Of a DNA stretch of 64,000 nucleotides, positions 1 to 23,487 are shown piece after piece. Under the pieces are notes generated by a model, which saw only the letters and a list, made by a program, of their open reading frames with translations, was not told the DNA's origin and did not search any database. The stretch's first letter is position 1. Each line of letters starts with the position of its first letter. The stretch comes from an uncultured bacterium. GTDB lineage: Bacteria > Fidelibacterota > Marinisomatia > Marinisomatales > UBA1611. The stretch is from NCBI GenBank assembly GCA_943788175.1, contig CALSPG010000008.1, forward strand, positions 1 through 64,000. The letters run 5' to 3'. Made by a program: the position numbers and the translations under genes.

Positions 1-145
1 CAATCACTTTATCGAAAACGAATGCGAATGGATTCATTACTATATTGACTCTATTCCATCATTTATAGAGTTCAATATTGTTAATGGAAATACTAAAAGA
101 TGGCGTGTGGATTCATTAAATAGTTTTATGTATTCAGATTTTTAA
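1..145 (+). CDS. 3' end of hypothetical protein (partial, runs off window)
   Basis: Open frame from nt 2 (NHFIENECEWIHYY...MYSDF) to TAA 143-145, 14 nt before the next gene. Confidence 0.6.
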   Translation, partial: NHFIENECEWIHYYIDSIPSFIEFNIVNGNTKRWRVDSLNSFMYSDF

Positions 146-159
146 AACAGACTTTCTTA

Positions 160-615
160 ATGAAAAAATATCTATTCATCGTTTTATTGGTTTGGGGTTG
201 GAGTTGTGCGCCGACACCAACTTTTATACCTAAAGTATCAGAAATAAACGCTGTTGACTTTACACCATTCACAGAAAAAGGATTTCTATTTACTCCCAAT
301 AAATACACACAAGATTATGAGTCAATCGGTATAATAAATTTTACTTATTTCCCTGAAGCAAATTTAATAGAGAAAAAAATTAAGCGTGGAAAAGACGAAA
401 AAGATGATATGATAGTAAAATTTTGGGATATAGAAAAATTTGATATTAATCTGTTACTTTATGAAGTATATACAGCTTCAATACAAATGGGGGCTGACGC
501 ACTAACTGAGTTTTCAATAAAATCTGTTTCATCTAATCACGCTTTAGGTTCAAGTTATCCCGTTAGTATAAATGGAATTCAAGTTTATGGTTTTGCAATT
601 AAACGAAATAAATAA
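160..615 (+). CDS. Lipoprotein, YbjQ/heavy-metal-binding-like fold possible
   Basis: MKKYLFIVLLV...WSC lipobox; C-terminal MGADAL...VYGFAIKR. Confidence 0.8.
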   Translation: MKKYLFIVLLVWGWSCAPTPTFIPKVSEINAVDFTPFTEKGFLFTPNKYTQDYESIGIINFTYFPEANLIEKKIKRGKDEKDDMIVKFWDIEKFDINLLLYEVYTASIQMGADALTEFSIKSVSSNHALGSSYPVSINGIQVYGFAIKRNK

Positions 616-618
616 GTA

Positions 619-1338
619 ATGAAAAAATATCTATTAATTGTTTTGTTGGTTGGGGTTGTCTTTGGGCAAGCAGATAATAATGACTCTATAGAAATGAAAG
701 ATGGAACTATACATAAAGGTACTATCGTAGATGAGAGTCCTTTCATTGTAATTATTGAATTAGATAATTTTTTAAAAACAAGACTTTCCTTGCCTAAGAG
801 AAAAGTCAAAAATATTAATAAGGGCAATAAAGTTATTGATAATAAAATACTAACCCTTGAGCAAGAATCAATTAATGTTTACAATAAGAAATATTCAAAT
901 GCGATTGGATTTTGCTCTGATAAGGACATTTACTTAAGTGCATTAAGCATACCTTGGGGGATTCGCTTTGAATCATCTGGAGGTTTTAATGTTACAGTTC
1001 AAAACAGTGATTCAGGTGATGAGTCTAAATTAAAAACCACAAGATTGGGGATTGGAATCTTATTTGAAGAAATTACAGATAAAGAATTGCGGTTATTTTC
1101 TTATTACGGATTAAGGGTTTTAAATACAAAAACCACATTTGGGTCGAAAAGTAGTGAGTCAGTTTCTAATTTATCAATTTCTCCGCTTTTAGGTTCAAAT
1201 TTATATGTGAATGATAGAGTGAGTATTGGAGGAGAGCTTCAGTTAAATATAGTTAAAGACTCTCCAGATGTTTCTGATGATGTTACTTATTTTCAGTACA
1301 ACCTTTATAGTAAAATATTTTTAAGGGTCTTTTTTTAA
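619..1338 (+). CDS. Exported protein, probable outer-membrane beta-barrel
   Basis: Shared signal peptide (FGQ); amphipathic strands; C-terminal Phe. Confidence 0.75.
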   Translation: MKKYLLIVLLVGVVFGQADNNDSIEMKDGTIHKGTIVDESPFIVIIELDNFLKTRLSLPKRKVKNINKGNKVIDNKILTLEQESINVYNKKYSNAIGFCSDKDIYLSALSIPWGIRFESSGGFNVTVQNSDSGDESKLKTTRLGIGILFEEITDKELRLFSYYGLRVLNTKTTFGSKSSESVSNLSISPLLGSNLYVNDRVSIGGELQLNIVKDSPDVSDDVTYFQYNLYSKIFLRVFF

Positions 1339-1339
1339 T

Positions 1340-2137
1340 ATGAAAAAATATCTATTCATCGTTTTATTGGTTGGGGTTTGTTTTGGGCAAGATATAGTTG
1401 ATTTAAAGACAAAGGTTTTTAAACGCGGTCTTGAAGAAGTAAAAATTCCAAACCCCAAAGGGAAAGTTACTTTTAATGACTCAAAAGAGCAGTTAAGCGT
1501 TAAAACCTCAACTGGAATGAAGTTCTTAAAATATAAAGATGTAATCAAAGTGTCTGATAAGAACAAAAAAGTTTATTGGACTTACCAAGAGTTCTTAGTC
1601 AAGAAACAGAAAAAATTATTTAGAGAACAATGTGCTAAAAACACATCAATTAAAATAGCCATTTTAGATTTGTCAGATGATATATATGGAGTATCAGATG
1701 ACCTAAATAATTATTATGATTCACTTTGTTATGATATAGCAGATAGAATGTCAGTTTTAGAATATGTAGATAAAAATAACTACAGTTTTAAAGATTTAAA
1801 TGATTATCAAACAAAGAAAATTGGTTCAGCTTTAGGTGTAGACTTTGTTATCAAAGGTTATGCTTATAAGTATGACATCCCTTTTCGCTATGGATCAGCG
1901 ACTCAAATGAATGCAAATAGAAATGAACTTGGATGGAATTATGACAATGAAATTGATTGGTTAAAGGTTCTTTATGGTTGGGGAGAGCGTATACAAGAAA
2001 ATAAACAAATATCCATGAGGGAGAATGCAATTAAAGAAGCTGGTTCTTACATTGCAATTACAGTATATAGCTTAAATGTAAAAACTGGAAAAACTAAGTT
2101 TATCATGAAAAACAAAACAGTAATGAAAATTGGTTAA
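1340..2137 (+). CDS. Exported protein with CsgG/TolB-N-like domain
   Basis: Shared signal peptide; IAILDL...KKIGSALGVDFVIKG pattern. Confidence 0.7.
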   Translation: MKKYLFIVLLVGVCFGQDIVDLKTKVFKRGLEEVKIPNPKGKVTFNDSKEQLSVKTSTGMKFLKYKDVIKVSDKNKKVYWTYQEFLVKKQKKLFREQCAKNTSIKIAILDLSDDIYGVSDDLNNYYDSLCYDIADRMSVLEYVDKNNYSFKDLNDYQTKKIGSALGVDFVIKGYAYKYDIPFRYGSATQMNANRNELGWNYDNEIDWLKVLYGWGERIQENKQISMRENAIKEAGSYIAITVYSLNVKTGKTKFIMKNKTVMKIG

Positions 2138-2140
2138 ACA

Positions 2141-2694
2141 ATGAAAAAATATCTATTCATCGTTTTATTGGTTGGGGTTTGGAGTTGTGGTACTCCTTAT
2201 CAGCCATATTCTATAGCTGGTGGTTTTTCAGAAACTCAATTAGATGAAAATATATTTCGTGTACGGTTTAATGGAAATGGTTACACCAGCGGTGCGCGAT
2301 CCTCAGATTTTTGCTTAATGAGAAGTGCTGAGCTATGTAAAAATAATGGCTTTAAATACTTTGTAATAATTGATGAATCGAGGGCATATCTAAATCTCAA
2401 TTCAAAACTCCGACGACGACTAATACAACTGGGAGTGCTACAGCTATTGGAAATACAGTATACGGAAATTCAAAAAGTACTACTACTGGTGGGCAAACAT
2501 ACAACATTTCAAAGCCAAGTAATGAAAATACAATAATTTGCTTTATTGAGAAACCCCAAAGCGGTGTGTCTTATAATGCTGATTTTTTATTTAAAAGTAT
2601 TTCTAAAAAATATAATGTTGGATCAAGTAACAGAAAAACATATCCAACAAAAGTAAATTTTAAAAAAAACGGATGTAAAACCAAAAGCACCTGA
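2141..2694 (+). pseudogene. Lipoprotein (CC0125/CC1285-like), frameshifted near 2380
   Basis: WSCGTPYQP..GGFSETQL..FRVRFNGNGYT then continues in another frame (TTTNTTGSATAIGNTVYG...QTYNISKP) to TGA 2692-2694. Confidence 0.7.
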
Positions 2695-2705
2695 AGGATG
2701 GGACG

Positions 2706-3425
2706 TTGATTAAAAAAACATCATATTTTATAAAAGCTTTACTGACTTTGATAGTATGTCTTAATTCTTTTTCTTATGCACAAGATGTGATAAAAATTGA
2801 TGGTAAAGAATTAAAAGGGAAGTATGTCAGTGTAGATTTTCAGAAAAATCGATTTAAATTCATTTACGAAGGCAGAGATACCCCAATAGAGCTTCCAATT
2901 GATAATAACAGGTTGGACTACATAAAACTTGAAAATGGAAAATATATATTTAAAAATCCAAAAATTATTGCAGCTGAAGAAGAATTATTAGCTAAAAAAG
3001 AAGAACTATTAGCAAAAAAAGAACAAGAAAGAATTCGAGCTGAAATAAAATCAAAATGTGATGAAAGAAAAAATATAAGGGTAGGTTTAATTCCGTTCCA
3101 AGATGATTCATATGGGGTATCAACTTGGGTAGCTGATACTTTAATGGGTATGTGTTACGATGTGGATGTATCAATGGTAAATATAATTAGTTGGTTTGAA
3201 AAGAAGAATATTAACATACGAGATATAAATGATTATCACATATTTAATGCTCAAAAAGAAATGGATTATGACATTATTGTATTTGGATATGTCTACACCA
3301 AAAAAGATGCGATAATTACTGGGCATACTCCATTTACTGGTATCTATGTTACAGCGTTCTATTTAGATAAAAGCGGAGTAAGAGATTATATATATGACAG
3401 GAAAAGAGTGATGGGCTTTTATTAG
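2706..3425 (+). CDS. Exported protein, paralog of 1340-2137 (CsgG/TolB-N-like)
   Basis: Signal peptide (YAQ); shares DD.YGVS...CYD...D.NDY...D.IV.GY.Y with 1340-2137; 21-bp EELLAKK tandem duplication. Confidence 0.7.
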   Translation: MIKKTSYFIKALLTLIVCLNSFSYAQDVIKIDGKELKGKYVSVDFQKNRFKFIYEGRDTPIELPIDNNRLDYIKLENGKYIFKNPKIIAAEEELLAKKEELLAKKEQERIRAEIKSKCDERKNIRVGLIPFQDDSYGVSTWVADTLMGMCYDVDVSMVNIISWFEKKNINIRDINDYHIFNAQKEMDYDIIVFGYVYTKKDAIITGHTPFTGIYVTAFYLDKSGVRDYIYDRKRVMGFY

Positions 3426-3426
3426 A

Positions 3427-4197
3427 TTGAAAAAATATCTATTCATCGTTTTATTGGTTGGGGTTTGTTTTGGGCAAGATGTCTATCCATATTTTAGTGA
3501 TATGGAGAAGCAACTTCAGTTTGAGAGGGAAAAAGTAACTATAGAAAAAAGCGAGGGTGTTGAGCAATTAATTAGCGGTGGCGGAAGTGCATTTAATTGG
3601 TTATCTATTATAGATGAAAAACAACCTATGTATTTAAACCAACCAATTAATACTTCCTATGTGTATTACTCAAATTTCTATATAAAAGTCGATGGGAAAA
3701 GCATAATGGAACTTGAAATGCTTAGGAAAATAGGATTAGATACTGAAGTTAATCGAATAGTTTCAAGTCATCTAAAAGAAATTGATTTTTATGAAAATCA
3801 CGTTAATAAAATGAACGAAAAAAAGAAAAAATATTATGAAGATATGAAAATTTATAAGATGACAAAACCAACCATAACCTTTAATTCAGACTATAAAGAA
3901 AAAAAAGAAATTGTTAATAAACTTTTAAGTATTGCTGGGGTAGTATTAGTTACAGGAATATTAACTGATTATAGCTCATTAAATCTTATCGGTTTAGGGG
4001 CAGGATTTACTGCTTTTGCTATATATGGTAACAATGAGAAGTTTAATAAAAAGATTTCACGTCCAAAAAAGCCAATTAATCCCACTGAATCAATAGTCTC
4101 AAGACCAATCTTAAAACAACAACTTGAGTTCAATCAATGCGTCGCATTAGCAGAAGCATACAATAGAAAACTCTATTCTGATATATCAAATAGGTAA
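3427..4197 (+). CDS. Exported/membrane hypothetical protein
   Basis: TTG start with shared signal peptide; two hydrophobic segments near C-terminus. Confidence 0.75.
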   Translation: MKKYLFIVLLVGVCFGQDVYPYFSDMEKQLQFEREKVTIEKSEGVEQLISGGGSAFNWLSIIDEKQPMYLNQPINTSYVYYSNFYIKVDGKSIMELEMLRKIGLDTEVNRIVSSHLKEIDFYENHVNKMNEKKKKYYEDMKIYKMTKPTITFNSDYKEKKEIVNKLLSIAGVVLVTGILTDYSSLNLIGLGAGFTAFAIYGNNEKFNKKISRPKKPINPTESIVSRPILKQQLEFNQCVALAEAYNRKLYSDISNR

Positions 4198-4831
4198 TGG
4201 CTATCCACGCAATTGTAAAGCAAATAGCTGAACAATTAAAAGGTCGCTTATCTATTGATGAAGAGAAAGGGATACTCCAACTTATATCCATTCAATACTT
4301 CAATCGATGGGCACATGAACCCTGTCAAAATATTTACAGACCCAAGAGACAAAAAAGAATATATCCTTGATTACAACAATGAGGACGACCGATTATCACA
4401 ATTAAAAAAGATCAATAAGATTATTTCATCTTATAATGGTGAAGTCATGAAGAATCATGGAGAGTATTTAAAAAAGCTTCCCTCAGATGGTAAAGTTCAC
4501 TCAGCAACAGAGGTAGGTTTTGATAAACCTTTACATTTACTCCCAGAATTGCCTTTATGGGGATTTGCGGTTTTAGGAAAGAACGAAATTAAAGACTACG
4601 ATAGAATTAAACCGATATCTATTGACGATAGAAAGCTTTACAGACTTCAGAATAGATCTAAATAATGATTCAGAGTTCATAGCACACTTAAATCGTTTGA
4701 TCTTTAACCATATTCAAATTAAGCGCAAAGAATCTGAGAAAATGGGTACATGGGATTCAGATAATATATGGTACAAACCCAATCAAAGATTTCATAAGTG
4801 GTTTCAAATTAACAATGACATTGACCCGTAG
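4197..4831 (+). pseudogene. Hypothetical gene split over three frames
   Basis: ATG at 4197 overlaps the previous stop; overlapping ORFs 4255-4665 and 4622-4831 read as consecutive pieces. Confidence 0.4.
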
Positions 4832-5460
4832 AAGACGGTGTCCATAAAGGGTGAAGCAGGAACAACTAATGCCGTATGGGCTATAGCAGATGACAATGAG
4901 GGCATAGATATAAGATGACGGAGTAGTTTGATACATATATGGATGCTTGACAGGTGGGCTAGAAAAGAAATTCACTTGCTAAAACTAAGGTACTGTTGTA
5001 TGTACTGCTATCTTTGAAAGATTATGACGGTAAAGCATATGCCAAGAGCAACAATCTGAGGGCAACAGTCATGGAGCAAGAATTAGCTCAATCTAACACC
5101 TTCTCGATCACTCCCACCCGTATACTGCCGAACCCTTTTCCGAGGGGATGCACTTGCTAGTATACGAACCTTTCATCTCCATGGTCAATGTTTGACCATC
5201 AAACATGATCCCTAAACGAGATTACATGATGAGGTCAACGAATTAATGCCAATAAGAGAACAACTCAGAACGGATTGAACGAGATTAAATCTTTGATACT
5301 TGGTAACGTACAATGAGATCGATGGTTAACTAAGTATAAGGAGGTGTCTCAGTATTCTTCGGTATCACTTAGCCAAGCTACAGTAAGAAGAGCTGTATGC
5401 GAAAGGTGTTCATTAAAATGCTCTCAAAGACTTGGTAAGCTACTTTTCCAGGAAAAGGAA
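4832..5460. ncRNA. Candidate structured non-coding RNA (~620 nt)
   Basis: No convincing ORF; more GC-rich than flanks; stems 5119-5126/5159-5166, 5181-5199, 5379-5397; CUUCGG at 5357. Confidence 0.35.
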
Positions 5461-5476
5461 GTACGTAGGTGGCTCA

Positions 5477-5683
5477 ATGGATAAGCTCTATGATACTCCA
5501 CTAAAATCAATTCGTAAGAAGTGTTTAGATTGTTCTTACTACCAACCAAAAGAAGTCAGAGAATGCACTTGTATTGATTGCCCAATTTATCCCTATCGTT
5601 TTGGGCGTAGACCCACTAAGGCGATAGTTGATACCATAAAACAGTTTAACAAAGAAAATACTGAGCCTACTGAGGGTTTTTGA
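5477..5683 (+). CDS. Small Cys-rich phage-type protein
   Basis: PLKSIRKKCLDC...EVREC...DCPIYPYRFG motif typical of small phage/MGE proteins. Confidence 0.75.
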   Translation: MDKLYDTPLKSIRKKCLDCSYYQPKEVRECTCIDCPIYPYRFGRRPTKAIVDTIKQFNKENTEPTEGF

Positions 5684-5686
5684 GCA

Positions 5687-6226
5687 ATGAAGCCTATTGC
5701 TGATAAAGGGTTTACCCATATGATTACGAATAGATTATATTGGTCTCCTGCATATCAATCTCTAACTAAATCTGCACAGAATTTGATGTGGTGTATGTAT
5801 CCTGAACTGAGATGGACAGGTACAAGAAAGAAAGGTGATTATAGCTATACAAACAATGGCAAAATCAGTTTCTCTGAAGTTGAATTTAAAAAGCAGGGAT
5901 TAGGAGTATCGCAAACCTACCTCAATGCACGAAATCAACTAATTGAAGTGGGTTTTATTAAAATTACTTATGAGGGTGGTATGACTAAAGGTGATATGAA
6001 TAAATACAAACTCCTTTGGGTAGATGGTGTCAGAGAATTGGAAATGAGGTGGAAACGCTATCCCGATGAGAACTGGAAACATGAAGTGCCATGTAAAAAG
6101 GATAATATGGTTGGGAGAGGTACTCGCTTTAAGAAATCAAAATCCACCCTAATAAGTAAGACCCTAAATGGATCAATATCCCCTAATGAATTAGACCCTA
6201 TGAAAGTGATATCCCCTAATGAGTAA
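5687..6226 (+). CDS. Winged-HTH replication-initiator-like protein
   Basis: SPAYQSLT..AQ.L...NNGKISFS...ARNQLIEVGFI pattern; direct repeats in its 3' end. Confidence 0.55.
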   Translation: MKPIADKGFTHMITNRLYWSPAYQSLTKSAQNLMWCMYPELRWTGTRKKGDYSYTNNGKISFSEVEFKKQGLGVSQTYLNARNQLIEVGFIKITYEGGMTKGDMNKYKLLWVDGVRELEMRWKRYPDENWKHEVPCKKDNMVGRGTRFKKSKSTLISKTLNGSISPNELDPMKVISPNE

Positions 6227-6274
6227 GGGGGTAAATGAGTATTTTAAGGTATTAAGCCCCCTAATGAGTTAGGG
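6147..6274 (+). repeat. Iteron-like repeats CCCTAATRARTWAG x4 (putative origin)
   Basis: Copies at 6147, 6181, 6214, 6259; last copy is the inverted repeat CCCTAA-TGAG-TTAGGG. Confidence 0.7.
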
Positions 6275-6370
6275 TATCTTATTAGTTACCATACATAAGA
6301 GAAAATAAAGGATGTTATATGAATAGAATCATATATGCTGTTAAACAGCGGGGAAACAGCGTAACAACAG

Positions 6371-6512
6371 GTGGTTTAATGGCGGGTGACCCCCGTGAAT
6401 CGGCGGTTAATCGGCGGAGAAATGGAGGTTTAATGGAGGGCAATAGGAGGTTTAAAATCGGTATTAAACGGAGGTTTAACGGTGGGAGACTTATAAAAAG
6501 TGGTTTAAAAGG
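6371..6512 (+). repeat. Degenerate ~11-bp periodic GGNGGTTTAA repeats
   Basis: GGTGGTTTAAT, GGCGGTTAAT, GGAGGTTTAAT, GGAGGTTTAAA, GGAGGTTTAAC etc. Confidence 0.6.
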
Positions 6513-6552: not shown

Positions 6553-6966
6553 CTAAAAAAGAGAAAAAATTATTCCTAAAATGAAAATAAATAGTTTTAT
6601 TGCAACCATAAGTCCAGCACCGAAAGAAGGTATTAATGCCCATACCATAATCACCTCCAAAACATTCACAAATGCATTTGGCTCAATTCCTTTTTCTCTT
6701 GCATCAAAATCAACTATGTTGATTCCATGTATGAATAATAAAAAAAAAGATAAAAATGTGAAATAAAATGGAAACCATAATATCGGACTTTCAGATAACT
6801 CATTCCAAAATGCTATGCCGTATATAATGTTTATGGCAAAAATTATGATATTGCCTTGGGATCTGTATTTAATATCATTTTTGAATATCATAATAAAATA
6901 TAATACTATTATACCATATGTTGTTGTAACACAACTACTACAAGAGTAACTTATACTAATGAGCAA
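6553..6966 (-). CDS. Hypothetical membrane protein (start uncertain)
   Basis: Several hydrophobic helices; convergent with the Rep-like operon. Confidence 0.5.
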   Translation of the reverse strand: MLISISYSCSSCVTTTYGIIVLYFIMIFKNDIKYRSQGNIIIFAINIIYGIAFWNELSESPILWFPFYFTFLSFFLLFIHGINIVDFDAREKGIEPNAFVNVLEVIMVWALIPSFGAGLMVAIKLFIFILGIIFSLF

Positions 6967-7189
6967 AGTAAATAAAGGAGGAAGACCAAAAGATGAGCCT
7001 ACAAGTTTGCGTTCTTTACGCTTACCAGTAAGGTTGTGGAATTTGGTCTACAAGGCATCAAAGAACTTTAGGTCTGTTAACGAATACTTCCTCAAATTGG
7101 TGGAGGATGATTTGATTAATAGGAAATTGTTAAAGAGGTCTGAACGGAAAAAACTTAGCTCAAGAAACTCAAACTCTACGAAAGGATAG
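6959..7189 (+). CDS. Small DNA-binding protein, ribbon-helix-helix-like
   Basis: GGRPK..RSLRLP.RLW...SVNEYFLKLVE; directly upstream of integrase. Confidence 0.65.
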   Translation: MSKVNKGGRPKDEPTSLRSLRLPVRLWNLVYKASKNFRSVNEYFLKLVEDDLINRKLLKRSERKKLSSRNSNSTKG

Positions 7190-7192
7190 GCT

Positions 7193-8327
7193 ATGAAGAA
7201 AAAACAGAAAAAAGCTGATGGTCTAAGAAGTCGTAGAGGCAAGTGGTATGCAAGAGTTTACTTTACAATAGATGGCATGAAAAAAGAGAAGCTAACTCCT
7301 TTAAGAACAACATCTAAGGTAGTTGCAAGAGAAAGAAAAATCGAGGTAGATAGAAAAGCAGAGGATATTAAAAAGGATCTGGATTTTTACATTTCCTTGG
7401 ATGTCTGATGTGCTTATTACTAAGGTCAAGAGATTCAGATTGGAAACTGCATGTAAAGAATGGATCAATAAACGCAAAGGTAAGATGAGAAAAAGTACTA
7501 TTGAGATAAATGAATTGAGTCTCAAACATCTTAAGGATTCACTTGGAAGGTTAATACCTATCGACACTATAAATAATGATAGTATTGAAAAGTATGCTAA
7601 TTATCTTAGTGATAGAGGTTTAAATGACACATCAATCAATATTAATCTAAGAACCGTAAAGGCTATGTTTAGATATTATCTTAAGGTTGGAAAGCTGGAT
7701 AAGATTCCATTGATAGAGCAGATACCAATTGATAAGAAAAAGCCGATATATATAACAGATGAAGAGTTCTCTGATATAATGAAAATAAAATGGTTAGATA
7801 GCTTTTATAAGAGAGTTTTCTTTCTATATAGAGAAACTGGGATGAGGCTTAACGAACCTAAGATATCTGAATTAGATGGTTACTGGATTGATATACCTAA
7901 TAAGTCAAAAGGAAAGAGTGAGCGAAATATTGAACTTAATGATGCACTTAAACCTATTTTCATAGAATTGAAAAAATGGTTGGATAGTGGTTATGGTTCA
8001 AAGCTTGTAGACTTTGGAGACCATTTCTCTAAGAAGTTCAAGAAATGTCTCAGACATATTAAGGCTGATGAATCTAAGCACTTCCATTCTCTTAGGCATA
8101 CTTTTGCAGTTCGTAGACTGATACAAGGAACATCAATATATGATTTAAAGCTATTGATGGGTCATAGTTCAGTAACTACAACTGAAGTCTATAGTGAAAT
8201 GAACCTAAAGCGTGTAAAAGACGACTTTCCAATATTAGTAGAAAATAGTCAAAATACTGCTAAAAATGGTAAATCGGACACTCGAATTACGGACACAGAG
8301 CAATATTCTGAAAAGTATGTTGCATAA
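7193..8327 (+). CDS. Tyrosine recombinase/integrase; N-terminal piece 7193-7400 joined by a 1-nt frameshift at T5 7384-7388
   Basis: Catalytic motifs ETGMR, K, HSLRH, LMGH, TEVY; SAM-like domain; N-terminal RRGKWYARV arm-binding-like strand. Confidence 0.9.
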
Positions 8328-8350: not shown

Positions 8351-8400
8351 CGCCTGCTTTGGGAGCAGGAGGTCGGGAGTTCGAATCTCTCCACCCCGAC
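8351..8400 (+). repeat. tRNA-Pro(UGG) 3' fragment (att core) 1
   Basis: CCTGC-TTTGGGA-GCAGG anticodon arm, GTTCGAATC T-loop, CACCCCG acceptor 3' strand; 5' half absent. Confidence 0.9.
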
Positions 8401-8406
8401 GCTATT

Positions 8407-8440
8407 AAGCCTTGTTTCTCGAGTAGAAATGAGGCTTTTT
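8407..8440 (+). terminator. Intrinsic terminator-like hairpin repeated in att units
   Basis: AAGCCTTGTTTCT-CGAGT-AGAAATGAGGCTTTTT; near-identical copies follow the 9958, 12381, 14706 and 19724 fragments. Confidence 0.75.
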
Positions 8441-8560
8441 GTCTTTTTACCTGTTTTAGTCTGATTTCCTTAAAAATACCCTAAAAAGCACTAAATGCAC
8501 TGGTAATACACTGGTCATTTTTAGTATGAGTTCTTTATTACATCTGTTAGGTATTGTGCT

Positions 8561-9921: not shown

Positions 9922-10080
9922 AGCAGGAGGTCGGGAGTTCGAATCTCTCCACCCCGACGCTATTAAGCCTTGTTTCTCGAGAAGAAATGAGGCTTTTGTC
10001 TTTTATACCTGTTTTAGGCTGATTTCCTTAAAAATACACTAAAATGCACTAAATGCACTGGTAATACACTGGTCATTTTT
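9922..10080 (+). repeat. att unit 2: truncated tRNA-Pro fragment plus right arm
   Basis: AGCAGG...CACCCCGAC (9922-9958), hairpin, CACTAAATGCACTGGTAATACACTGGTCATTTT. Confidence 0.9.
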
Positions 10081-10111
10081 CATAGGATAATTATTTGTAG
10101 ATTTGATAAGT

Positions 10112-10729
10112 ATGAAGAAATATCTATTCATAGTTTTATTAATTGGCTTTTGGGGATGTAATATTCTTCAAAAAAAAGATATTATTGCACTTTTTGACTA
10201 TGAGCCTATTAATTATGATGGCAGTATAAATGCATTGATTGAAATTCCTGCCGGCACTTTAAAAAAATGGGAGTTTAACAAAGTAAGTGGATTAATTGAA
10301 TTAGAAATAATTAATAATAAGCCAAGAATAATAGATTATTTGGGATATCCTGCCAACTATGGAATGATTCCCAAAACATTATTAGCAAAAAAAAATGGGG
10401 GAGATGGTGACCCTTTAGATATTATAGTTATAGGGCCTCCGCAAGAAAAAGGGAGTGTTGTTAAATGCAAAATTATTGGAGTACTCCATCTCATCGACAA
10501 TTTAGAGAAGGACGATAAACTAATTGCGGTATTGCATAATTCAACATTAAATAATATCAATGGCATTAAAGAATTAGATGCCAATTATAATGGGATATTG
10601 GAAATATTAGATTTATGGTTTACGAATTATAAGGGTAGTGATGAAATAATATCAAAAGGCTTTGGTGATGAACAAAGTGCTTCAAGAATATTAAATAGTG
10701 CAATAAATCAATATTTAAATAATCAATAA
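10112..10729 (+). CDS. ppa: Family I inorganic pyrophosphatase with lipoprotein signal
   Basis: EIP.G..KWE, YPANYG.IP.T, DGDPLD, DDKL motifs; MKKYLFIVLLIGFWGC lipobox. Confidence 0.9.
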   Translation: MKKYLFIVLLIGFWGCNILQKKDIIALFDYEPINYDGSINALIEIPAGTLKKWEFNKVSGLIELEIINNKPRIIDYLGYPANYGMIPKTLLAKKNGGDGDPLDIIVIGPPQEKGSVVKCKIIGVLHLIDNLEKDDKLIAVLHNSTLNNINGIKELDANYNGILEILDLWFTNYKGSDEIISKGFGDEQSASRILNSAINQYLNNQ

Positions 10730-10795
10730 TTTTTTATATCAAAACCCCCACATTCGTGGGGTTTTTTGTTTATGGGATGATGGGTAGATTCATAA

Positions 10796-11272: not shown

Positions 11273-11356
11273 TTTACAAACCCTAGCCCCACATTCGTGG
11301 GGTTTTTTGTTTATAGCCTCTCACACATTGTAGGGTAATTTTTTGTAGATTTGGTT

Positions 11357-12271
11357 ATGATTAGGCGTATATCAATACTATTGTTTATTGGGTTGTGTTG
11401 GGGACAAGAAATTGTAGAAATCAAAACCGGTTCATTTTTTGGGATGTGCTCAGGCTATTGTCTTTCTGAATTAACTATAACCGAAAGTCAGGCTGATTAT
11501 AATATTTATGGATGGGATGAGAATGACCCTGTTTACCTGCCAGTGGAAATCAGTGATTCTGTTGATTCTATTGTTTGGGAAAACCTGAATACAGAGTTCA
11601 ATTTTGAATTATTTATGAGTTTAGATAGTATAATTGGTTGTCCAGATTGTGTAGATGGTGGTGCAGAATGGTTTGAGATTGTAACAAGTGATACATTAAA
11701 AAGAGTAACCATTGAATATGGTGATTCTCTTAATGGTTTAGATAGTTATATAAATTTACTTCGTACAATTCGACAAAGTTTTGAAGAGATTCAGAAGTGC
11801 TATTATACCCCGAACCCAGGTGTTTGTTTGGCCGCTATTACCAAGTATTATTTTGACCAAGAAGAGAACGAGTGTTTAGAATTCACTTGGGGAGGTTGCG
11901 GTGGATTAGTCCCATTTGAAACTATGGATGATTGTGAATCAAGTTGTATTGATGATGGTCAACAATTATCAACCCATATTTCTCATTATCCTGTTAAGTA
12001 TGAATTAAAAAATTGTTATCCCAACCCTTTCAACCCAGTCACAACTTTACGATATGACTTGCCACAAGATGGTTTAGTTAATATCACTATCTACGATATG
12101 ATGGGAAGGAAAGTCAAGACACTCATAAATGACTCACAAACTGCAGGATTCAAGTCAGTCCAATGGAATGCAACTAATGATAGAAATGAGCCTGTATCAG
12201 CGGGATTATATCTTTATACAATACAAGCAGGGGAGTATAGACAGACAAAGAAGATGATTCTTCTTAAATAG
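11357..12271 (+). CDS. Secreted protein with Kunitz/BPTI domain and FlgD-Ig/Por-like CTD
   Basis: CYYTPNPGVCLAAITKYYFD....CLEFTWGGCGG..PFETMDDCESSC; NPFNP...KKMILLK. Confidence 0.88.
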   Translation: MIRRISILLFIGLCWGQEIVEIKTGSFFGMCSGYCLSELTITESQADYNIYGWDENDPVYLPVEISDSVDSIVWENLNTEFNFELFMSLDSIIGCPDCVDGGAEWFEIVTSDTLKRVTIEYGDSLNGLDSYINLLRTIRQSFEEIQKCYYTPNPGVCLAAITKYYFDQEENECLEFTWGGCGGLVPFETMDDCESSCIDDGQQLSTHISHYPVKYELKNCYPNPFNPVTTLRYDLPQDGLVNITIYDMMGRKVKTLINDSQTAGFKSVQWNATNDRNEPVSAGLYLYTIQAGEYRQTKKMILLK

Positions 12272-12277
12272 ATAATT

Positions 12278-12505
12278 GGTTCAATTTCCACTACAGATTC
12301 ACTGGTAAAGTTTCATTTATAGAGGGTTTTCAGCCTCCTTTGGGAGCAGGAGGTCGGGAGTTCGAATCTCTCCACCCCGACACTTTAAAGCCTTATTTCT
12401 CGAGAAGAAATGAGGCTTTTTTCTTTGTAGGCTAGTTTAGTCTGATTTACTTAAAAACACCCTAAAAAGCACTGAATGCACTGGTAATACACTGGTCATT
12501 TTTTT
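12278..12505 (+). repeat. att unit 3: left arm, tRNA-Pro fragment (12333-12381), right arm
   Basis: Near-identical to units at 14603 and 19621. Confidence 0.9.
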
Positions 12506-14602: not shown

Positions 14603-14826
14603 GGCTCAATTTCCACTACAGATACACTGGTAAAGTTTCATTTATAGAGGATTTTCAGTCTGTTTTGGGAGCAGGAGGTCGGGAGTTCGAATCTCTCCAC
14701 CCCGACGCTATTAAGCCTTGTTTCTCAAGAAGAAATGAGGCTTTTTACTTTCTAACCTGTTTTAGTCTGAATTCTTTAAAAATACCCTAAAAAGGACTAA
14801 TCGCACTGGTAATACACTGGTTATTT
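14603..14826 (+). repeat. att unit 4: left arm, tRNA-Pro fragment (14658-14706), right arm
   Basis: Same unit with 2 substitutions in the anticodon stem. Confidence 0.9.
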
Positions 14827-16331: not shown

Positions 16332-16436
16332 TATGATCTCCTTAAAAACACCCTAAAAAGCACTAAATACACTGGTAATACACTGGTCATTTTTCCAAGG
16401 TTTTTTGTTTCAGGGATGATGGGTAGATTTTTATAT

Positions 16437-16889
16437 ATGAAAATAGAATCTTATCAGCAAAAGCATTTTGAAAGTTGTATGGAAATTATTCAAAGTAATA
16501 CCCCCAAATATATTTTACCTTTTGAGCATTTAGATTATAAAAATTATTTATCAAGGAAAAGCAAAACATATTTTGTTTTTTTTAAAGATAATGATCTCGT
16601 CGCTTGTGGTGGTTATGGTTTAAATAAAACAAAAACAAAAGCAGGCTTATCCTGGGGATTAGTTCATAGAAGATACCATAACCAAGGATATGGAAGTCAA
16701 TCGATTAAATATCGATTACATCATATTAAAAGTGATTATCCAGATATTGAAATTCATTTAGATACAAGCCAACACACCTATCTATTTTTTTTTAAGTTTG
16801 GTTTTATAATCAAACAAATAACAAAAAATGGATATGGTAAAGGACTTGATAAGTATGATATGATTTTAAAAGAAGATTCAAATCTTTGA
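16437..16889 (+). CDS. GNAT N-acetyltransferase (copy 1)
   Basis: ACGGY, WGLVH...NQGYG, LDTSQHT; near-identical to 21767-22219. Confidence 0.88.
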   Translation: MKIESYQQKHFESCMEIIQSNTPKYILPFEHLDYKNYLSRKSKTYFVFFKDNDLVACGGYGLNKTKTKAGLSWGLVHRRYHNQGYGSQSIKYRLHHIKSDYPDIEIHLDTSQHTYLFFFKFGFIIKQITKNGYGKGLDKYDMILKEDSNL

Positions 16890-16937
16890 TATCCCCACAT
16901 TCGTGAGGTTTTTTGTTTATGGGTGATGAGTAAATAC

Positions 16938-17231
16938 TCAATCTCCAGCAAATGGTGTCCCAAATAATCCAACTCCAAGTTCAGCCCAAATAAGAAGAAA
17001 CATCATTACTATAATTACTATAAATACCTCTCTATATTTATAATATTTAACCTTTTTAAGTACTATTCCAATCAATAAACCAATGATGGTGAGCAATGCC
17101 CCCATAATTATAAAATCATAAAAAGACCAGTTTACTTCATCGGTTAATTGCATCGCTATCAATGGGATTAAAAGTAAGAGCCCAACTATAGGCAAGATTT
17201 TAATCATCATATTTAACAGAAAATATAACAT
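16938..17231 (-). CDS. Small membrane protein (copy 1; start uncertain)
   Basis: LIPLIAMQ.TDEVNWS..DF...LIWAELGVG.FGTPFAG. Confidence 0.8.
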   Translation of the reverse strand: MLYFLLNMMIKILPIVGLLLLIPLIAMQLTDEVNWSFYDFIIMGALLTIIGLLIGIVLKKVKYYKYREVFIVIIVMMFLLIWAELGVGLFGTPFAGD

Positions 17232-17448
17232 TTGTATTCTCATACCTTCATTTGTATAAATCAGTTCCACATTCGTGGGGTTTTTTGTTTACAGCCCCGC
17301 ACACATTGTAGGGTAATTATATGTAGATCAATAGGTAATTAAGTATCTTTTTTTGAAAATAAGTTTTAAGTAATACTTAAACTATTTTGTATTATACTTA
17401 ATACTGACTATATTCCACTTTAATAATCTAAATTATCGAATCTATAAT

Positions 17449-19620: not shown

Positions 19621-19845
19621 GGTTCAATTTCCACTACAGATTCACTGGTAAAGTTTCATTTATAGAGGGTTTTCAGCCTGCTTTGGGAGCAGGAGGTCGG
19701 GAGTTTGAATCTCTCCACCCCGACGCTATTAAGCCTTGTTTCTCGAGAAGAAATGAGGCTTTTGTCTTTTATACCTGTTTTAGGCTGATCTCCTTAAAAA
19801 TACACTAAAAAGCACTAAATGCACTGGTAATACACTGGTCATTTT
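19621..19845 (+). repeat. att unit 5: left arm, tRNA-Pro fragment (19676-19724), right arm
   Basis: Same unit; T-loop variant GTTTGAAT. Confidence 0.9.
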
Positions 19846-21694: not shown

Positions 21695-21766
21695 AAATTT
21701 CTCTATGCATAAACCCCCACATTCGTGGGGTTTTTTGTTTGTGGGATGATGGGTAGATTTTTATAT

Positions 21767-22219
21767 ATGAGAATAGAATCTTACCAGCAAAAGCATTTTG
21801 AAAGTTGTATGGAAATTATTCAAAGTAATACCCCCAAATATATTTTACCTTTTGAGCATTTAGATTACAAAAATTATTTATTAAGAAAAAACAAAACATA
21901 TTTTGTTTTTTTTAAAAATAATAATCTCGTTGCGTGTGGTGGTTATGGTTTAAATAAAACAAAAACAAAAGCAGGATTGTGCTGGGGGTTAGTTCATAGA
22001 AGATACCATAACCAAGGATTTGGAAGTCAATCGATTAAATATAGATTAAATCATATTATGATTAATTATCCAGAAATTGAAATACATTTAGATACAAGCC
22101 AACATACTCATCAATTTTTCGAGAAATTTGGTTTTATTACCGAACAAATAACAAAAAATGGATATGGTGAAGGACTAGACAAGTATGATATGACTTTAAA
22201 TAAAGATTCAAATCTATGA
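21767..22219 (+). CDS. GNAT N-acetyltransferase (copy 2)
   Basis: Same length (453 nt) and sequence family as 16437-16889. Confidence 0.88.
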   Translation: MRIESYQQKHFESCMEIIQSNTPKYILPFEHLDYKNYLLRKNKTYFVFFKNNNLVACGGYGLNKTKTKAGLCWGLVHRRYHNQGFGSQSIKYRLNHIMINYPEIEIHLDTSQHTHQFFEKFGFITEQITKNGYGEGLDKYDMTLNKDSNL

Positions 22220-22254
22220 TATTTTCACATTTATGGGGTTTAATGTTCAAAGTT

Positions 22255-22614
22255 TTATCTTAATATTTTATCTAAATCTTTTCCTTTTGCCAACTCATCT
22301 ACCAATTTATCTAGATATCTTACCTGCTTAGTTATTGGGTTTTTAACTTCTTCTACTTTAATACCACATATAGTGCCAGTAATTAGATGAGCATTTTTAT
22401 TTAAAGTTGCATTCATAAAGAATGATTCAAATGTAACATTCTGCTCAATAAATTTTTCCAGTTCCTCAAATTTAAAACCTGTTAACCATTCAATTACTTT
22501 GTGTAGTTCATCTTTACTTCGGGTTTTTTTCTCAATCTTATCAACATAATGAGGATAAATAGATGCAAATGTCATTTTTGCAATTCTTTGGTCTTGTTTA
22601 GATGTGGAACTCAT
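22255..22614 (-). CDS. DUF2200 family protein
   Basis: MTFASIYPHY..K.EKK.R...VIEWLTG...RYLDKLVDELAKGK. Confidence 0.9.
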   Translation of the reverse strand: MSSTSKQDQRIAKMTFASIYPHYVDKIEKKTRSKDELHKVIEWLTGFKFEELEKFIEQNVTFESFFMNATLNKNAHLITGTICGIKVEEVKNPITKQVRYLDKLVDELAKGKDLDKILR

Positions 22615-22715
22615 TATAGTTATCTAATAAAACTAACATAATATGTCTATATATTGGTTGGATTTTTTATTTTAGGTATAATATCTAAATTAAAAGATAA
22701 AATAAAGGGTAAAAT

Positions 22716-23030
22716 ATGAAAATCGAAACTAAAAGTATGTTTCTTGGTATTGCATTGGGTGGTATTGGTGTTTTTTCTATATTATTTCTCACAGGTAATG
22801 TTGAGACAGAATTTTTTTTATCGACAGGAGATAATAATCAAAATAAAAATATTGAAGTAAGTATTGAACGAACAATTGAGAATGGTGAAGATTTAACAAA
22901 TGTTGTTATAAAAGGTGAAGGTGATGTTACTAGAAAGGAACTAGAAGAGGAGTTAGATAGAATGCTTGAAAAACAAGGTATAGATAAAGCAAAAACAAAA
23001 TTGAAAATTGAAATGAAAATACAAAGTTAA
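22716..23030 (+). CDS. Hypothetical membrane-anchored protein
   Basis: N-terminal TM helix; followed by junction repeat. Confidence 0.7.
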   Translation: MKIETKSMFLGIALGGIGVFSILFLTGNVETEFFLSTGDNNQNKNIEVSIERTIENGEDLTNVVIKGEGDVTRKELEEELDRMLEKQGIDKAKTKLKIEMKIQS

Positions 23031-23087
23031 TTTATCATCAAGCCCCACATTTGTGGTTTTTTTCTTAGTTGAATGATGGGCAGATAT

Positions 23088-23381
23088 TCAATTTCCAGCA
23101 AATGGCGTCCCAAATAAACCAACTCCAAGTTCAGCCCAAATAAGGAGAAATATCATTATAATGATTGCGATAAATATATTTCTGTATTTATAGTATTTAA
23201 TCTTTTTAATTATTATTCCAAGTGCTAGACCAGTAATAGAAAGCATTATCCCCATAATTATAAAATCAAAAAAAGACCAGTTTACTTCATCGGTTAATTG
23301 CATCGCTATCAATGGGATTAAAAGTAAGAGCCCAACTATAGGCAAGATTTTAATCATCATATTTAACAGAAAATATAACAT
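23088..23381 (-). CDS. Small membrane protein (copy 2; start uncertain)
   Basis: Paralog of 16938-17231; 5' part identical at DNA level. Confidence 0.8.
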   Translation of the reverse strand: MLYFLLNMMIKILPIVGLLLLIPLIAMQLTDEVNWSFFDFIIMGIMLSITGLALGIIIKKIKYYKYRNIFIAIIIMIFLLIWAELGVGLFGTPFAGN

Positions 23382-23487
23382 TTGTATTCTCATACCTTCA
23401 TTTGTATAAATCAGTTCCACATTCGTGGGGTTTTTTGTTTATATAACTAAACGCACTGGTAATACACTGGTCATTTAGTAGAGATAA

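Follow-up and report, generated by a model that had tools for sequence, protein, structure and literature searches.

The window analysed here is the 64,000-nucleotide (nt) stretch that opens contig CALSPG010000008.1 (C8) of an uncultured bacterium of the Marinisomatales; it starts within an array of tightly packed genes, five of which, with unrelated mature parts, begin with nearly the same 41-51 nt. This repeat encodes a signal peptide, and it is probably a portable 5' export module, copied and reshuffled by homologous recombination, which heads genes for accessory exported proteins. Under this explanation the module genes occupy islands that vary between strains, several of them next to tRNA genes, and the cargo regions of small tRNA-integrating elements, of which the element in the window is one; homologous recombination between copies would spread and reshuffle them. 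A crossover within the core of ~40-50 nt would fuse whatever lies upstream of one gene (a promoter or the tail of its neighbour) in frame with the mature domain of another, and the block between two copies would be removed, duplicated or inserted; new copies would continually be born from a cross-species pool and then decay.

The repeat heads the co-oriented genes that start at 160, 619, 1340, 2141 and 3427, all five copies being direct repeats, and encodes the signal peptide MKKYLFIVLLVGV. A 40-mer allowing up to 3 mismatches was found four times in the window (161, 1341, 2142 and 3428), against an expectation of 0 in 100 shuffles, and the more diverged copy at 619 was joined to the others by repeat finding. 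By translation only, the layout would be of the Sec type, with MKK, then YLFIVLLVGV, and then a WSC lipobox (160 and 2141) or CFGQ, xFGQ being the general form of the tail at 619, 1340 and 3427. Among 29 copies from this genome and its relatives, taken at up to 4 mismatches and selected on positions 3-37, with the edges not part of the selection, column identity was 0.76-1.00 from the ATG to +40, 0.55-0.86 to +49 and 0.28-0.69 on both flanks, the drop being immediate outside the repeat. On the explanation favoured here, the n- and h-regions encoded by the repeat belong to a single Sec signal peptide peculiar to the genus, behind which comes either of two processing tails. If cleavage takes place between G and Q, the conserved box takes in the first mature codon; the Bacteroidetes Q-rule (cleavage between G and Q) does not hold across the whole Fibrobacteres-Chlorobi-Bacteroidetes group, according to the excerpt of PMC5837995 used here. 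The array consists of six co-oriented genes, 1-5 nt apart, which occupy 1-4197 of the window behind the cut end of a seventh gene; these and the next open reading frame (ORF) are as follows (aa, amino acids).

1-145, plus strand: 3' end of an upstream ORF, truncated by the contig start.
160-615, plus strand: gene 1, 151 aa, lipoprotein-type (MKKYLFIVLLVWGWSC); repeat copy 160-207, 2/40 mismatches.
619-1338, plus strand: gene 2, 239 aa, xFGQ tail, last residue F; repeat copy 619-669, 5/38 mismatches.
1340-2137, plus strand: gene 3, 265 aa, CFGQ tail; repeat copy 1340-1390, 0 mismatches.
2141-2700, plus strand: gene 4, a frameshifted lipoprotein of the CC0125/CC1285 family (NF047637, 68.3 bits, cut-off 40); repeat copy 2141-2188.
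2706-3425, plus strand: gene 5, 239 aa, signal peptide unlike that of the repeat (MIKKTSYFIKALLTLIVCLNSFSYAQ); distantly paralogous to gene 3.
3427-4197, plus strand: gene 6, 256 aa, TTG start, CFGQ tail, hydrophobic stretch at about residues 180-205; repeat copy 3427-3477.
4197-4831, plus strand: broken remains of an ORF that has 287 aa in the related element L138 (55% over 127 aa).

A first-pass annotation of the window had described five genes with unrelated mature parts and nearly the same start, and both shuffles and BLASTP bear this out: past the signal peptide BLASTP found nothing alike among the mature parts of the array genes, the paralogy of genes 3 and 5 aside. It had also reported two tails (WSC and xFGQ), starts 1-3 nt past the preceding stop, identity extending to synonymous positions and conservation ending at the cleavage site. 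All of this agrees with the tails given above, with gaps of 3, 1, 3 and 1 nt for the starts at 619, 1340, 2141 and 3427, with five rare codons kept in all copies and with the fall in column identity past +49. As to the make-up of the array, the five copies stand, to which must be added that the sixth gene (2706-3425) has another signal peptide, that gene 4 is frameshifted and that gene 6 starts with TTG. In the pair 1326-1393 and 3413-3480, moreover, similarity extends 14 nt further upstream (93% over 68 nt). Bacteroidota-like bacteria largely dispense with Shine-Dalgarno sites, and if this holds here the missing ribosome-binding site is not special.

Recombination at the repeat can be followed in metagenomic contigs. 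Contig L137 corresponds to C2:35116-33527 (99.8%) and then to C2:28327-19082 (99.5%), the overlap of 50 nt being the repeat and 5.2 kb being missing. Its signal peptide is a hybrid, with the 5' variant from one parental copy and the 3' variants from the other parental copy, so the crossover lies somewhere from about +8 to +35. To judge from this contig, crossover inside the repeat demonstrably occurs in the wild population; the hybrid copy is most simply accounted for by homologous recombination between direct repeats, and we infer that the enzyme route is of the RecA type. Signal peptides also differ between orthologues: a pair from genomes G001 and G000 is 87% identical from the FGQ codons on and unrelated before, and the homologue of gene 6 in G020, which belongs to another genus, carries the signal peptide MINRITLLLFIGLAWGQ, its similarity beginning at GQ/DVYPYF. 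Among copy pairs with the same downstream 75 nt (at least 80%; n = 34), 15 had no BLASTN match in the 200 nt upstream, and 221 pairs have the upstream side in common and not the downstream side; in three of these pairs, read base by base, similarity starts at the start codon (two pairs) or at a promoter-like box about 18 nt upstream (one pair). Aligned blocks of G000 and G001 (~90% identity) begin or finish at copies, a 1.76-kb tandem duplication on contig C2 starts at a copy, and junction positions within the repeat vary. Array content differs between related elements and strains, the cargo of L138 being different from that of the window. The sharp limits of conservation, the unrelated cargo and the swaps of signal peptides between orthologues are demonstrated. 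The first-pass annotation had read the repeat as a site of recombination from which genes receive their start and export signal, and in substance the L137 crossover and the copy-pair junctions support it; a comparison of array content between relatives and a search for mature-domain homologues with other signal peptides, both of which it had proposed, gave the differences just described.

Population data came from four marine metagenome runs of four studies that hold parts of the element, as contigs only, broken at exact repeats. One contig of run X1 (record 1, 163-1351) spans genes 1 and 2 through the diverged copy at 619. Two apparent joints (188>1339 and 2189>2140) had short sides of 30-36 nt and were out of register, and they were given no weight. 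Word depth in the four runs was 2-10 for the element contigs versus 9-230 for the flank contig, a hint only, as contig depth is not the share of cells.

The codons speak for common descent of the copies. Five rare codons, CTA (0.13), TTC (0.17), ATC (0.12), TTG (0.13) and GGG (0.13), each figure being the share among the codons of its own amino acid in this genome (12-17%), are retained in all copies, and a pattern open to every synonymous codon gave 41 matches in seven of the nine genomes of the genus, nearly all with the same codons. Because the rare codons are shared and the same codons are used throughout, the copies are alike by descent and not by convergence; on this evidence all of them demonstrably come from one ancestral sequence. 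When ~462 signal-peptide-like N-termini of the genome are grouped with a limit of 8 differences in 48 nt, the repeat forms the sole cluster to exceed 2 members; the other six signal-peptide groups are whole-gene duplicates. Differences from the consensus in 36 copies amounted to 38 synonymous changes at 8.7 sites and 46 non-synonymous changes at 27.3 sites; as read from these copies, which were chosen for closeness to the consensus, the substitution pattern is the ordinary protein-level one on young copies.

Several points weigh against a recombining export module. A single crossover has been followed base by base in near-identical sequence, the identical product would also result from a site-specific enzyme working on the repeat, and 40-50 nt of identity is a short substrate for RecA-type recombination. 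Recombination among existing copies leaves the first attachment of the core to genes unexplained. The copies were picked by nearness to the consensus, which lowers their apparent divergence. Moreover, the core is far better kept across species than its flanks, which needs frequent cross-species exchange or else selection at the nucleotide level. Core genes of G000 are 67-74% identical to those of G004, G005 or G007 (70-74% for G000/G004), with 41-49% at fourfold sites, and the sorting domains beside the repeat have 47-69% identity at fourfold sites, while the 36-mer in G004-G007 differs by 0-2 mismatches, so that the conservation is local. In the vertical orthologue pair G000/G007, on the other hand, the repeat differs at 9/51 nt (row reading) and the gene has 77.7% identity; here the repeat has diverged about as much as the rest of the gene, so there is no absolute constraint. 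Finally, the five or six remnant copies in G000 have 7-8 mismatches, one of them being found via the degenerate pattern only; dead copies in this genome thus decay and are not homogenised. We infer, within the export-module explanation, that cross-species exchange keeps the core uniform.

The local conservation above flanks and core genes is also what selection on the nucleotide sequence itself would produce, the repeat serving as a start region for leader-poor mRNAs without Shine-Dalgarno sites, as a regulatory tag or as a stretch of rare codons that slows translation for export, with recombination being incidental. Retention of the five rare codons is in keeping with this, as is RNA that around two copies is less folded than shuffles (z +1.35 and +1.49), although low structure does not demand identity. 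So are the upstream ORF ends found from -4 to +12 nt of the copy in 45/98 metagenome copies, the TAnnTTTG-like box up to 26 nt upstream of the ATG in 14/98, and some orphan copies that form short ORFs whose stop is next to or overlaps the start of the next gene. Synonymous sites, however, change ~2.6 times faster per site than non-synonymous ones, and the synonymous variants run mostly toward commoner codons (TTC to TTT, ATC to ATT or ATA, CTA to TTA). The vertical orthologue pair G000/G007 has diverged at a normal rate, and only ~2% of the signal-peptide-like starts of the genome carry the sequence. Nor does an antisense or small-RNA role find a partner in the non-coding region of the element, the longest complement of the repeat within 4661-5440 being 8 nt. 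We regard nucleotide-level selection as rather unlikely to be the main cause. Rfam held no family for the repeat, either at gathering scores or at E values up to 1.

Two observations on individual copies may be recorded beside this. A TTTGTAGATTTG box, of the TAnnTTTG type, lies ~8-10 nt before the ATG in many copies, for instance at 10084-10111 of the window, and suggests mRNAs with very short leaders or none. Orphan copies on L105, L142, L136 and L141 form ORFs of 16-29 codons, the stop of which lies 2 nt before the start of an unrelated gene or overlaps it (ATGA), as if the module acted as a coupled upstream ORF.

A Chi-like hotspot was rejected, since the 8-mers of the repeat occur in the genome at observed/expected values of 0.91-1.17, none of them in excess. 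Homogenisation of dead copies is not supported either: secondary metagenome copies that head short ORFs are no more diverged than those with long ORFs, but detection stopped at 5 mismatches, and the G000 remnants are the most diverged copies. Matches to 16-mers beyond the known copies were partial and A-rich, two on contig C1 having been inspected.

Genes 1, 3, 5 and 6 have no family in Pfam, PHROGs or NCBIfam, and Pfam found no sorting domain in any of the six. Gene 2 has a weak outer-membrane beta-barrel match (PF13505, E 0.062, under the cut-off), and its homologue on metagenome contig L109 has another upstream neighbour. A family-wide search with the mature parts of genes 2 and 6 found each in 1/53 other genomes. 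Gene 3 has seven homologues among 5.8 billion clusters, all seven with the signal peptide of the repeat; the closest homologues of gene 5 (P0006 and P0007) have this signal peptide too, unlike gene 5 itself. The frameshift of gene 4 lies near 2400-2540. The homologue of gene 6 in L138 is 31% identical over 233 aa. No terminator-like site was found on the plus strand of 1-4700. As the window begins at a contig end within the array, the array is cut off on the left and continues that way; there is a weak hint that the cut gene at 1-145 starts with the same signal peptide as well. Contigs from runs X1 and X3 fit the window up to 2189, in a WSC-type signal peptide, and then from position 1 onward, and the gene order over the three identical copies depends on the assembly.

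Some of these genes bring up the possibility that the array consists of recent tandem duplicates whose mature parts have diverged beyond recognition while the signal peptide stayed unchanged. Genes 3 and 5 are indeed distant paralogues (27% over 83 aa, E 4e-11), an identical signal peptide recurs in gene 3 homologues at 25-34% identity, and the 1.76-kb duplication on C2 starts at a copy. The module nevertheless heads ancient unrelated families (pyrophosphatase, beta-lactamase fold, metallophosphatase, leucine-rich repeat [LRR] proteins and the CC0125 lipoprotein), and there are orthologues that differ in the signal peptide alone. Tandem duplication is contradicted as a general explanation and hardly credible as such; single pairs may have arisen in this way.

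In the whole genome (2.27 Mb, 33% G+C, 12 contigs) 19 loci match the repeat with up to 8/38 mismatches, in three places: the window start together with the tRNA-Pro island (C8, with a duplicate at the end of C7), C2:10-46 kb, and a lone broken copy on C7. Intact ORFs follow ten of the copies and frameshifted genes follow three, while five or six copies are remnants. A 36-mer with up to 3 mismatches occurs in five of the eight other species of the genus and in none of 32 genomes outside it; judged from these genomes, the module is restricted to a single genus, probably of the Marinimicrobia/SAR406. The exact 36-mer gave four stretches in three records among 185,579 species genomes, one of the records being titled Candidatus Marinimicrobia, and the viral contigs of IMG/VR gave 0 exact matches to the repeat. 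In metagenomes 60 contigs contain the 36-mer, with 98 copies at up to 5 mismatches. The arrays of relatives adjoin tRNA-Arg (G004), tRNA-Asp (G005) and tRNA-Ala (G007), which together with tRNA-Pro makes four regions beside tRNA genes. A literature search, which named Marinimicrobia in part of the queries and had supplementary files outside its scope, returned no description of the module.

According to Pfam, the module precedes a PF00719 pyrophosphatase (10112-10729 in the window), PF00144 and PF00149 proteins, and LRR proteins with PF18962. The kinds of cargo are thus inorganic pyrophosphatase, beta-lactamase fold, metallophosphatase, LRR and other proteins with a type IX secretion system (T9SS) sorting domain, and the CC0125 lipoprotein. 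The metagenome set holds 49 ORFs of at least 60 aa, which form 29 clusters after trimming of the sorting domain, and 40 copies that head complete ORFs of less than 60 aa. In the arrays of relatives, which contain LRR and other proteins with PF18962, the sorting domains are 73-92% identical in protein. The stretch of sorting domain plus repeat in the T9SS arrays (~300 nt) is 80-88% identical between G004 and G000; the homology spans the preceding C-terminal sorting domain, and each variable middle part in these arrays therefore has conserved sequence on both sides. In 20 of the 98 metagenome copies the repeat comes straight after a sorting-domain end (...KKMVLLK, in many cases overlapping as TAATG), and 12 of these 20 are orphans.

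A second recurring signal peptide (M.R..S.LLFIGL.WGQ) was seen on unrelated genes of at least three genera of the family (window 11351-12271, L078:1444-2130 and L076:6598-7095); it forms no DNA-level cluster in this genome.

The first-pass annotation placed the array on an integrase-bearing element, and both an integrase and an insertion into tRNA-Pro were found. The sequence from C8:8351 onward equals that from C7:407076 onward (99.5-99.9%), and on C7 this point lies inside an intact tRNA-Pro(TGG) that adjoins tRNA-His, from which it follows that C8:1-8350 is the right part of an element inserted in tRNA-Pro. A tyrosine integrase thus stands beside the junction with the 3' part of the tRNA, and the tRNA at the empty site on C7 is intact. 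As reconstructed here, the window array is cargo of this integrase-bearing element. Its features downstream of the array are as follows.

5432-5683, plus strand: small zinc-finger-like ORF, weak matches only.
5687-6226, plus strand: replication-like ORF, 179 aa, weak matches only.
6959-7189, plus strand: Arc-like ribbon-helix-helix protein (phrog_6506, E 2.1e-5).
7193-8327, plus strand: tyrosine integrase in two frames, split near 7385-7400 (PF00589, PF13102).
8351-8521, plus strand: attR, the 3' half of tRNA-Pro(TGG) (8351-8400) plus ~120 nt, first of five such repeats.

The integrase and the array have the same orientation and are ~3-3.2 kb apart, separated by backbone genes, and both pieces of the integrase align to an intact homologue of 370 aa. 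The backbone of the element is present, with other cargo, in 5/53 other genomes of the family. A second, related copy at C2:40-46 kb has its own gene with the signal peptide of the repeat, and its integrase is also split, at another place. L138, a fuller relative, has in order two large genes with this signal peptide, the gene 6 homologue, the 287-aa ORF, a helix-turn-helix-like ORF (a label taken from reading the sequence, with no profile match), a 626-aa ORF, a 241-aa ORF and the integrase; from the position of its homologue there, gene 6 stands where the variable cargo gives way to the backbone.

The mechanism put forward in the first-pass annotation was integron-like: a recombinase would act on the repeat as its site, and captured ORFs would gain a start codon and an export signal. 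Co-oriented, tightly packed genes beside an integrase-bearing element fit it, and so do cargo that differs between related elements and a block bounded by two copies that is present in one strain and absent from another. The 12/20 orphans after sorting-domain ends would also be expected if the 3' end of a cassette carried the next signal peptide. The integrase, however, falls far below the cut-offs of the integron-integrase models and so is not of their type (TIGR02249, 49.7 bits, 265 being required; PRK15417, 30.8, with 435 required), it has the 3' half of tRNA-Pro as its att site, which is unlike the repeat, and its frame is split both here and in the second copy on C2. Four 68-nt strands folded as single-stranded DNA gave -2.0 to -4.9 kcal/mol (z -0.43, -0.10, +0.07 and -2.02), with no attC-like hairpin, since the stem behind the value of -2.02 uses copy-specific bases upstream of the ATG, outside the conserved box. 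To this are added the direct orientation of all copies, the differing positions of the junctions within the repeat, the absence of exact matches from the IMG/VR contigs, and the many copies situated in T9SS cargo arrays; in the arrays of relatives no integrase was noticed in ORF lists and Pfam scans, a dedicated integrase search not having been made there. Capture driven by an integron-like recombinase is thus very improbable, and this part of the earlier proposal is not upheld.

A related idea keeps the comparison with integrons and drops their enzyme. The signal-peptide core might, tentatively, be a coding counterpart of attC, an in-frame docking sequence that makes exported genes interchangeable across strains and species of this genus through homologous recombination or some enzyme. 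A cassette would then be made up of a mature domain, any sorting domain attached to it and the signal peptide that follows; at whichever copy it integrated, an incoming gene would obtain a start, an export signal and, through close coupling, translation, and the core would be kept uniform because uniformity makes the pool exchangeable. For the export module as proposed above, it is the usefulness of interchangeability to the cell, as opposed to its being a by-product, that we would assume.

The tRNA-Pro island carries further repeats. The 170-nt repeat (3' part of tRNA-Pro plus ~120 nt) occurs in five copies, 89-97% alike, at 8352-8521, 9922-10080, 12333-12503, 14660-14826 and 19676-19845, and has no further copy outside C7 and C8, the contig starting within the element. 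Small sets of accessory genes stand between the five repeats, which resemble scars left by insertions that followed one another at a single tRNA. An extra cassette of ~900 nt is present in this region on C7, and each of the four metagenome runs has a contig that passes directly from 10081 to 10760 and so leaves out the pyrophosphatase gene. Because C7 and C8 hold two versions of the island, the assembly mixes at least two strains. A 157-aa ORF with a 110-aa membrane ORF is found near-identical twice in the island, a few kb apart (16416-17270 and 21725-23420).

Within the element, the frame shift of the integrase (7380-7410) falls at a run of T, and a metagenome contig over 6951-7422 differs by one gap, so that an intact version may exist. 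The region 4832-5431 is non-coding, with 40-43% G+C in a genome of 33%, and is partly conserved in L138 (69%); metagenome contigs are without two segments of ~95 nt in it (5137>5235 and 5267>5362), and it had no Rfam match at gathering scores or at E values up to 1. Just 3' of the replication-like ORF there are direct repeats in two groups of three (19 nt and 21 nt), at 6176-6272 and 6366-6486; they are iteron-like and possibly represent the origin of the element or a protein-binding array.

Among known systems, the closest analogue would seem to be the KLIKK proteases of Tannerella forsythia, which are secreted T9SS proteins, belong to unrelated catalytic classes and have in common a signal peptide, an N-terminal part and a near-identical C-terminal domain; their clusters are absent from a close relative, and the authors suggest fusion of pre-existing genes to end-coding sequences (PMC4404884, as far as the excerpt used here goes). 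Measured against that excerpt, the arrays of the relatives are similar in having unrelated domains between a common signal peptide and a C-terminal sorting domain, whereas the window array shares the signal peptide only. The present case further differs in covering dozens of families across a whole genus and marine metagenomes, in its demonstrated synonymous-site identity and crossover within the repeat, and in genes tied to tRNA islands and integrative elements.

Integrons resemble the array in their co-oriented, packed genes, a repeat at each junction, a tyrosine recombinase nearby and content that varies between relatives; here, however, the repeat is coding, stands at the 5' end of the gene and lacks a hairpin, and the integrase is not IntI, does not adjoin the array and targets a tRNA. 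The Vpma/Xer1 system of Mycoplasma needs Xer1 and works by inversion of genes with respect to a single promoter, its sites being placed in the 5' untranslated region (-1 to -72), according to the available portion of PMC2268961. On that portion, what is alike is a family of genes for surface lipoproteins whose 5' region is conserved, the nearness of a tyrosine recombinase and of a tRNA gene, and recombination at the conserved region, by which the protein that is made changes, whereas here the repeats are direct, conservation runs from the ATG and the outcome is loss or gain of genes instead of switching.

Outer-membrane gene families of Helicobacter have conserved ends. Surface proteins of Porphyromonas gingivalis undergo domain rearrangement and allelic exchange, as given in the passages of PMC5266723 used here. 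Both resemble the present case in that homologous recombination at conserved gene ends gives new combinations of surface proteins; there, paralogues or common adhesin domains are involved, whereas here the middles are unrelated and the conserved 5' end has ~50 nt.

The repeats break short-read assemblies and can mis-order genes in assembled genomes, and the 36-mer is a specific probe for drawing this gene pool from metagenomes. Signal peptides are usually seen as fast-drifting and bound to their genes, whereas one of them acts here as a common DNA module, which tags the accessory exported proteins in a marine lineage that is abundant and uncultured, and which is also the point where blocks of genes are exchanged. 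If the genes are indeed interchangeable, variable surface and periplasmic repertoires could in this way be assembled without a recombinase, and it would help to explain the turnover of flexible islands in streamlined marine bacteria.

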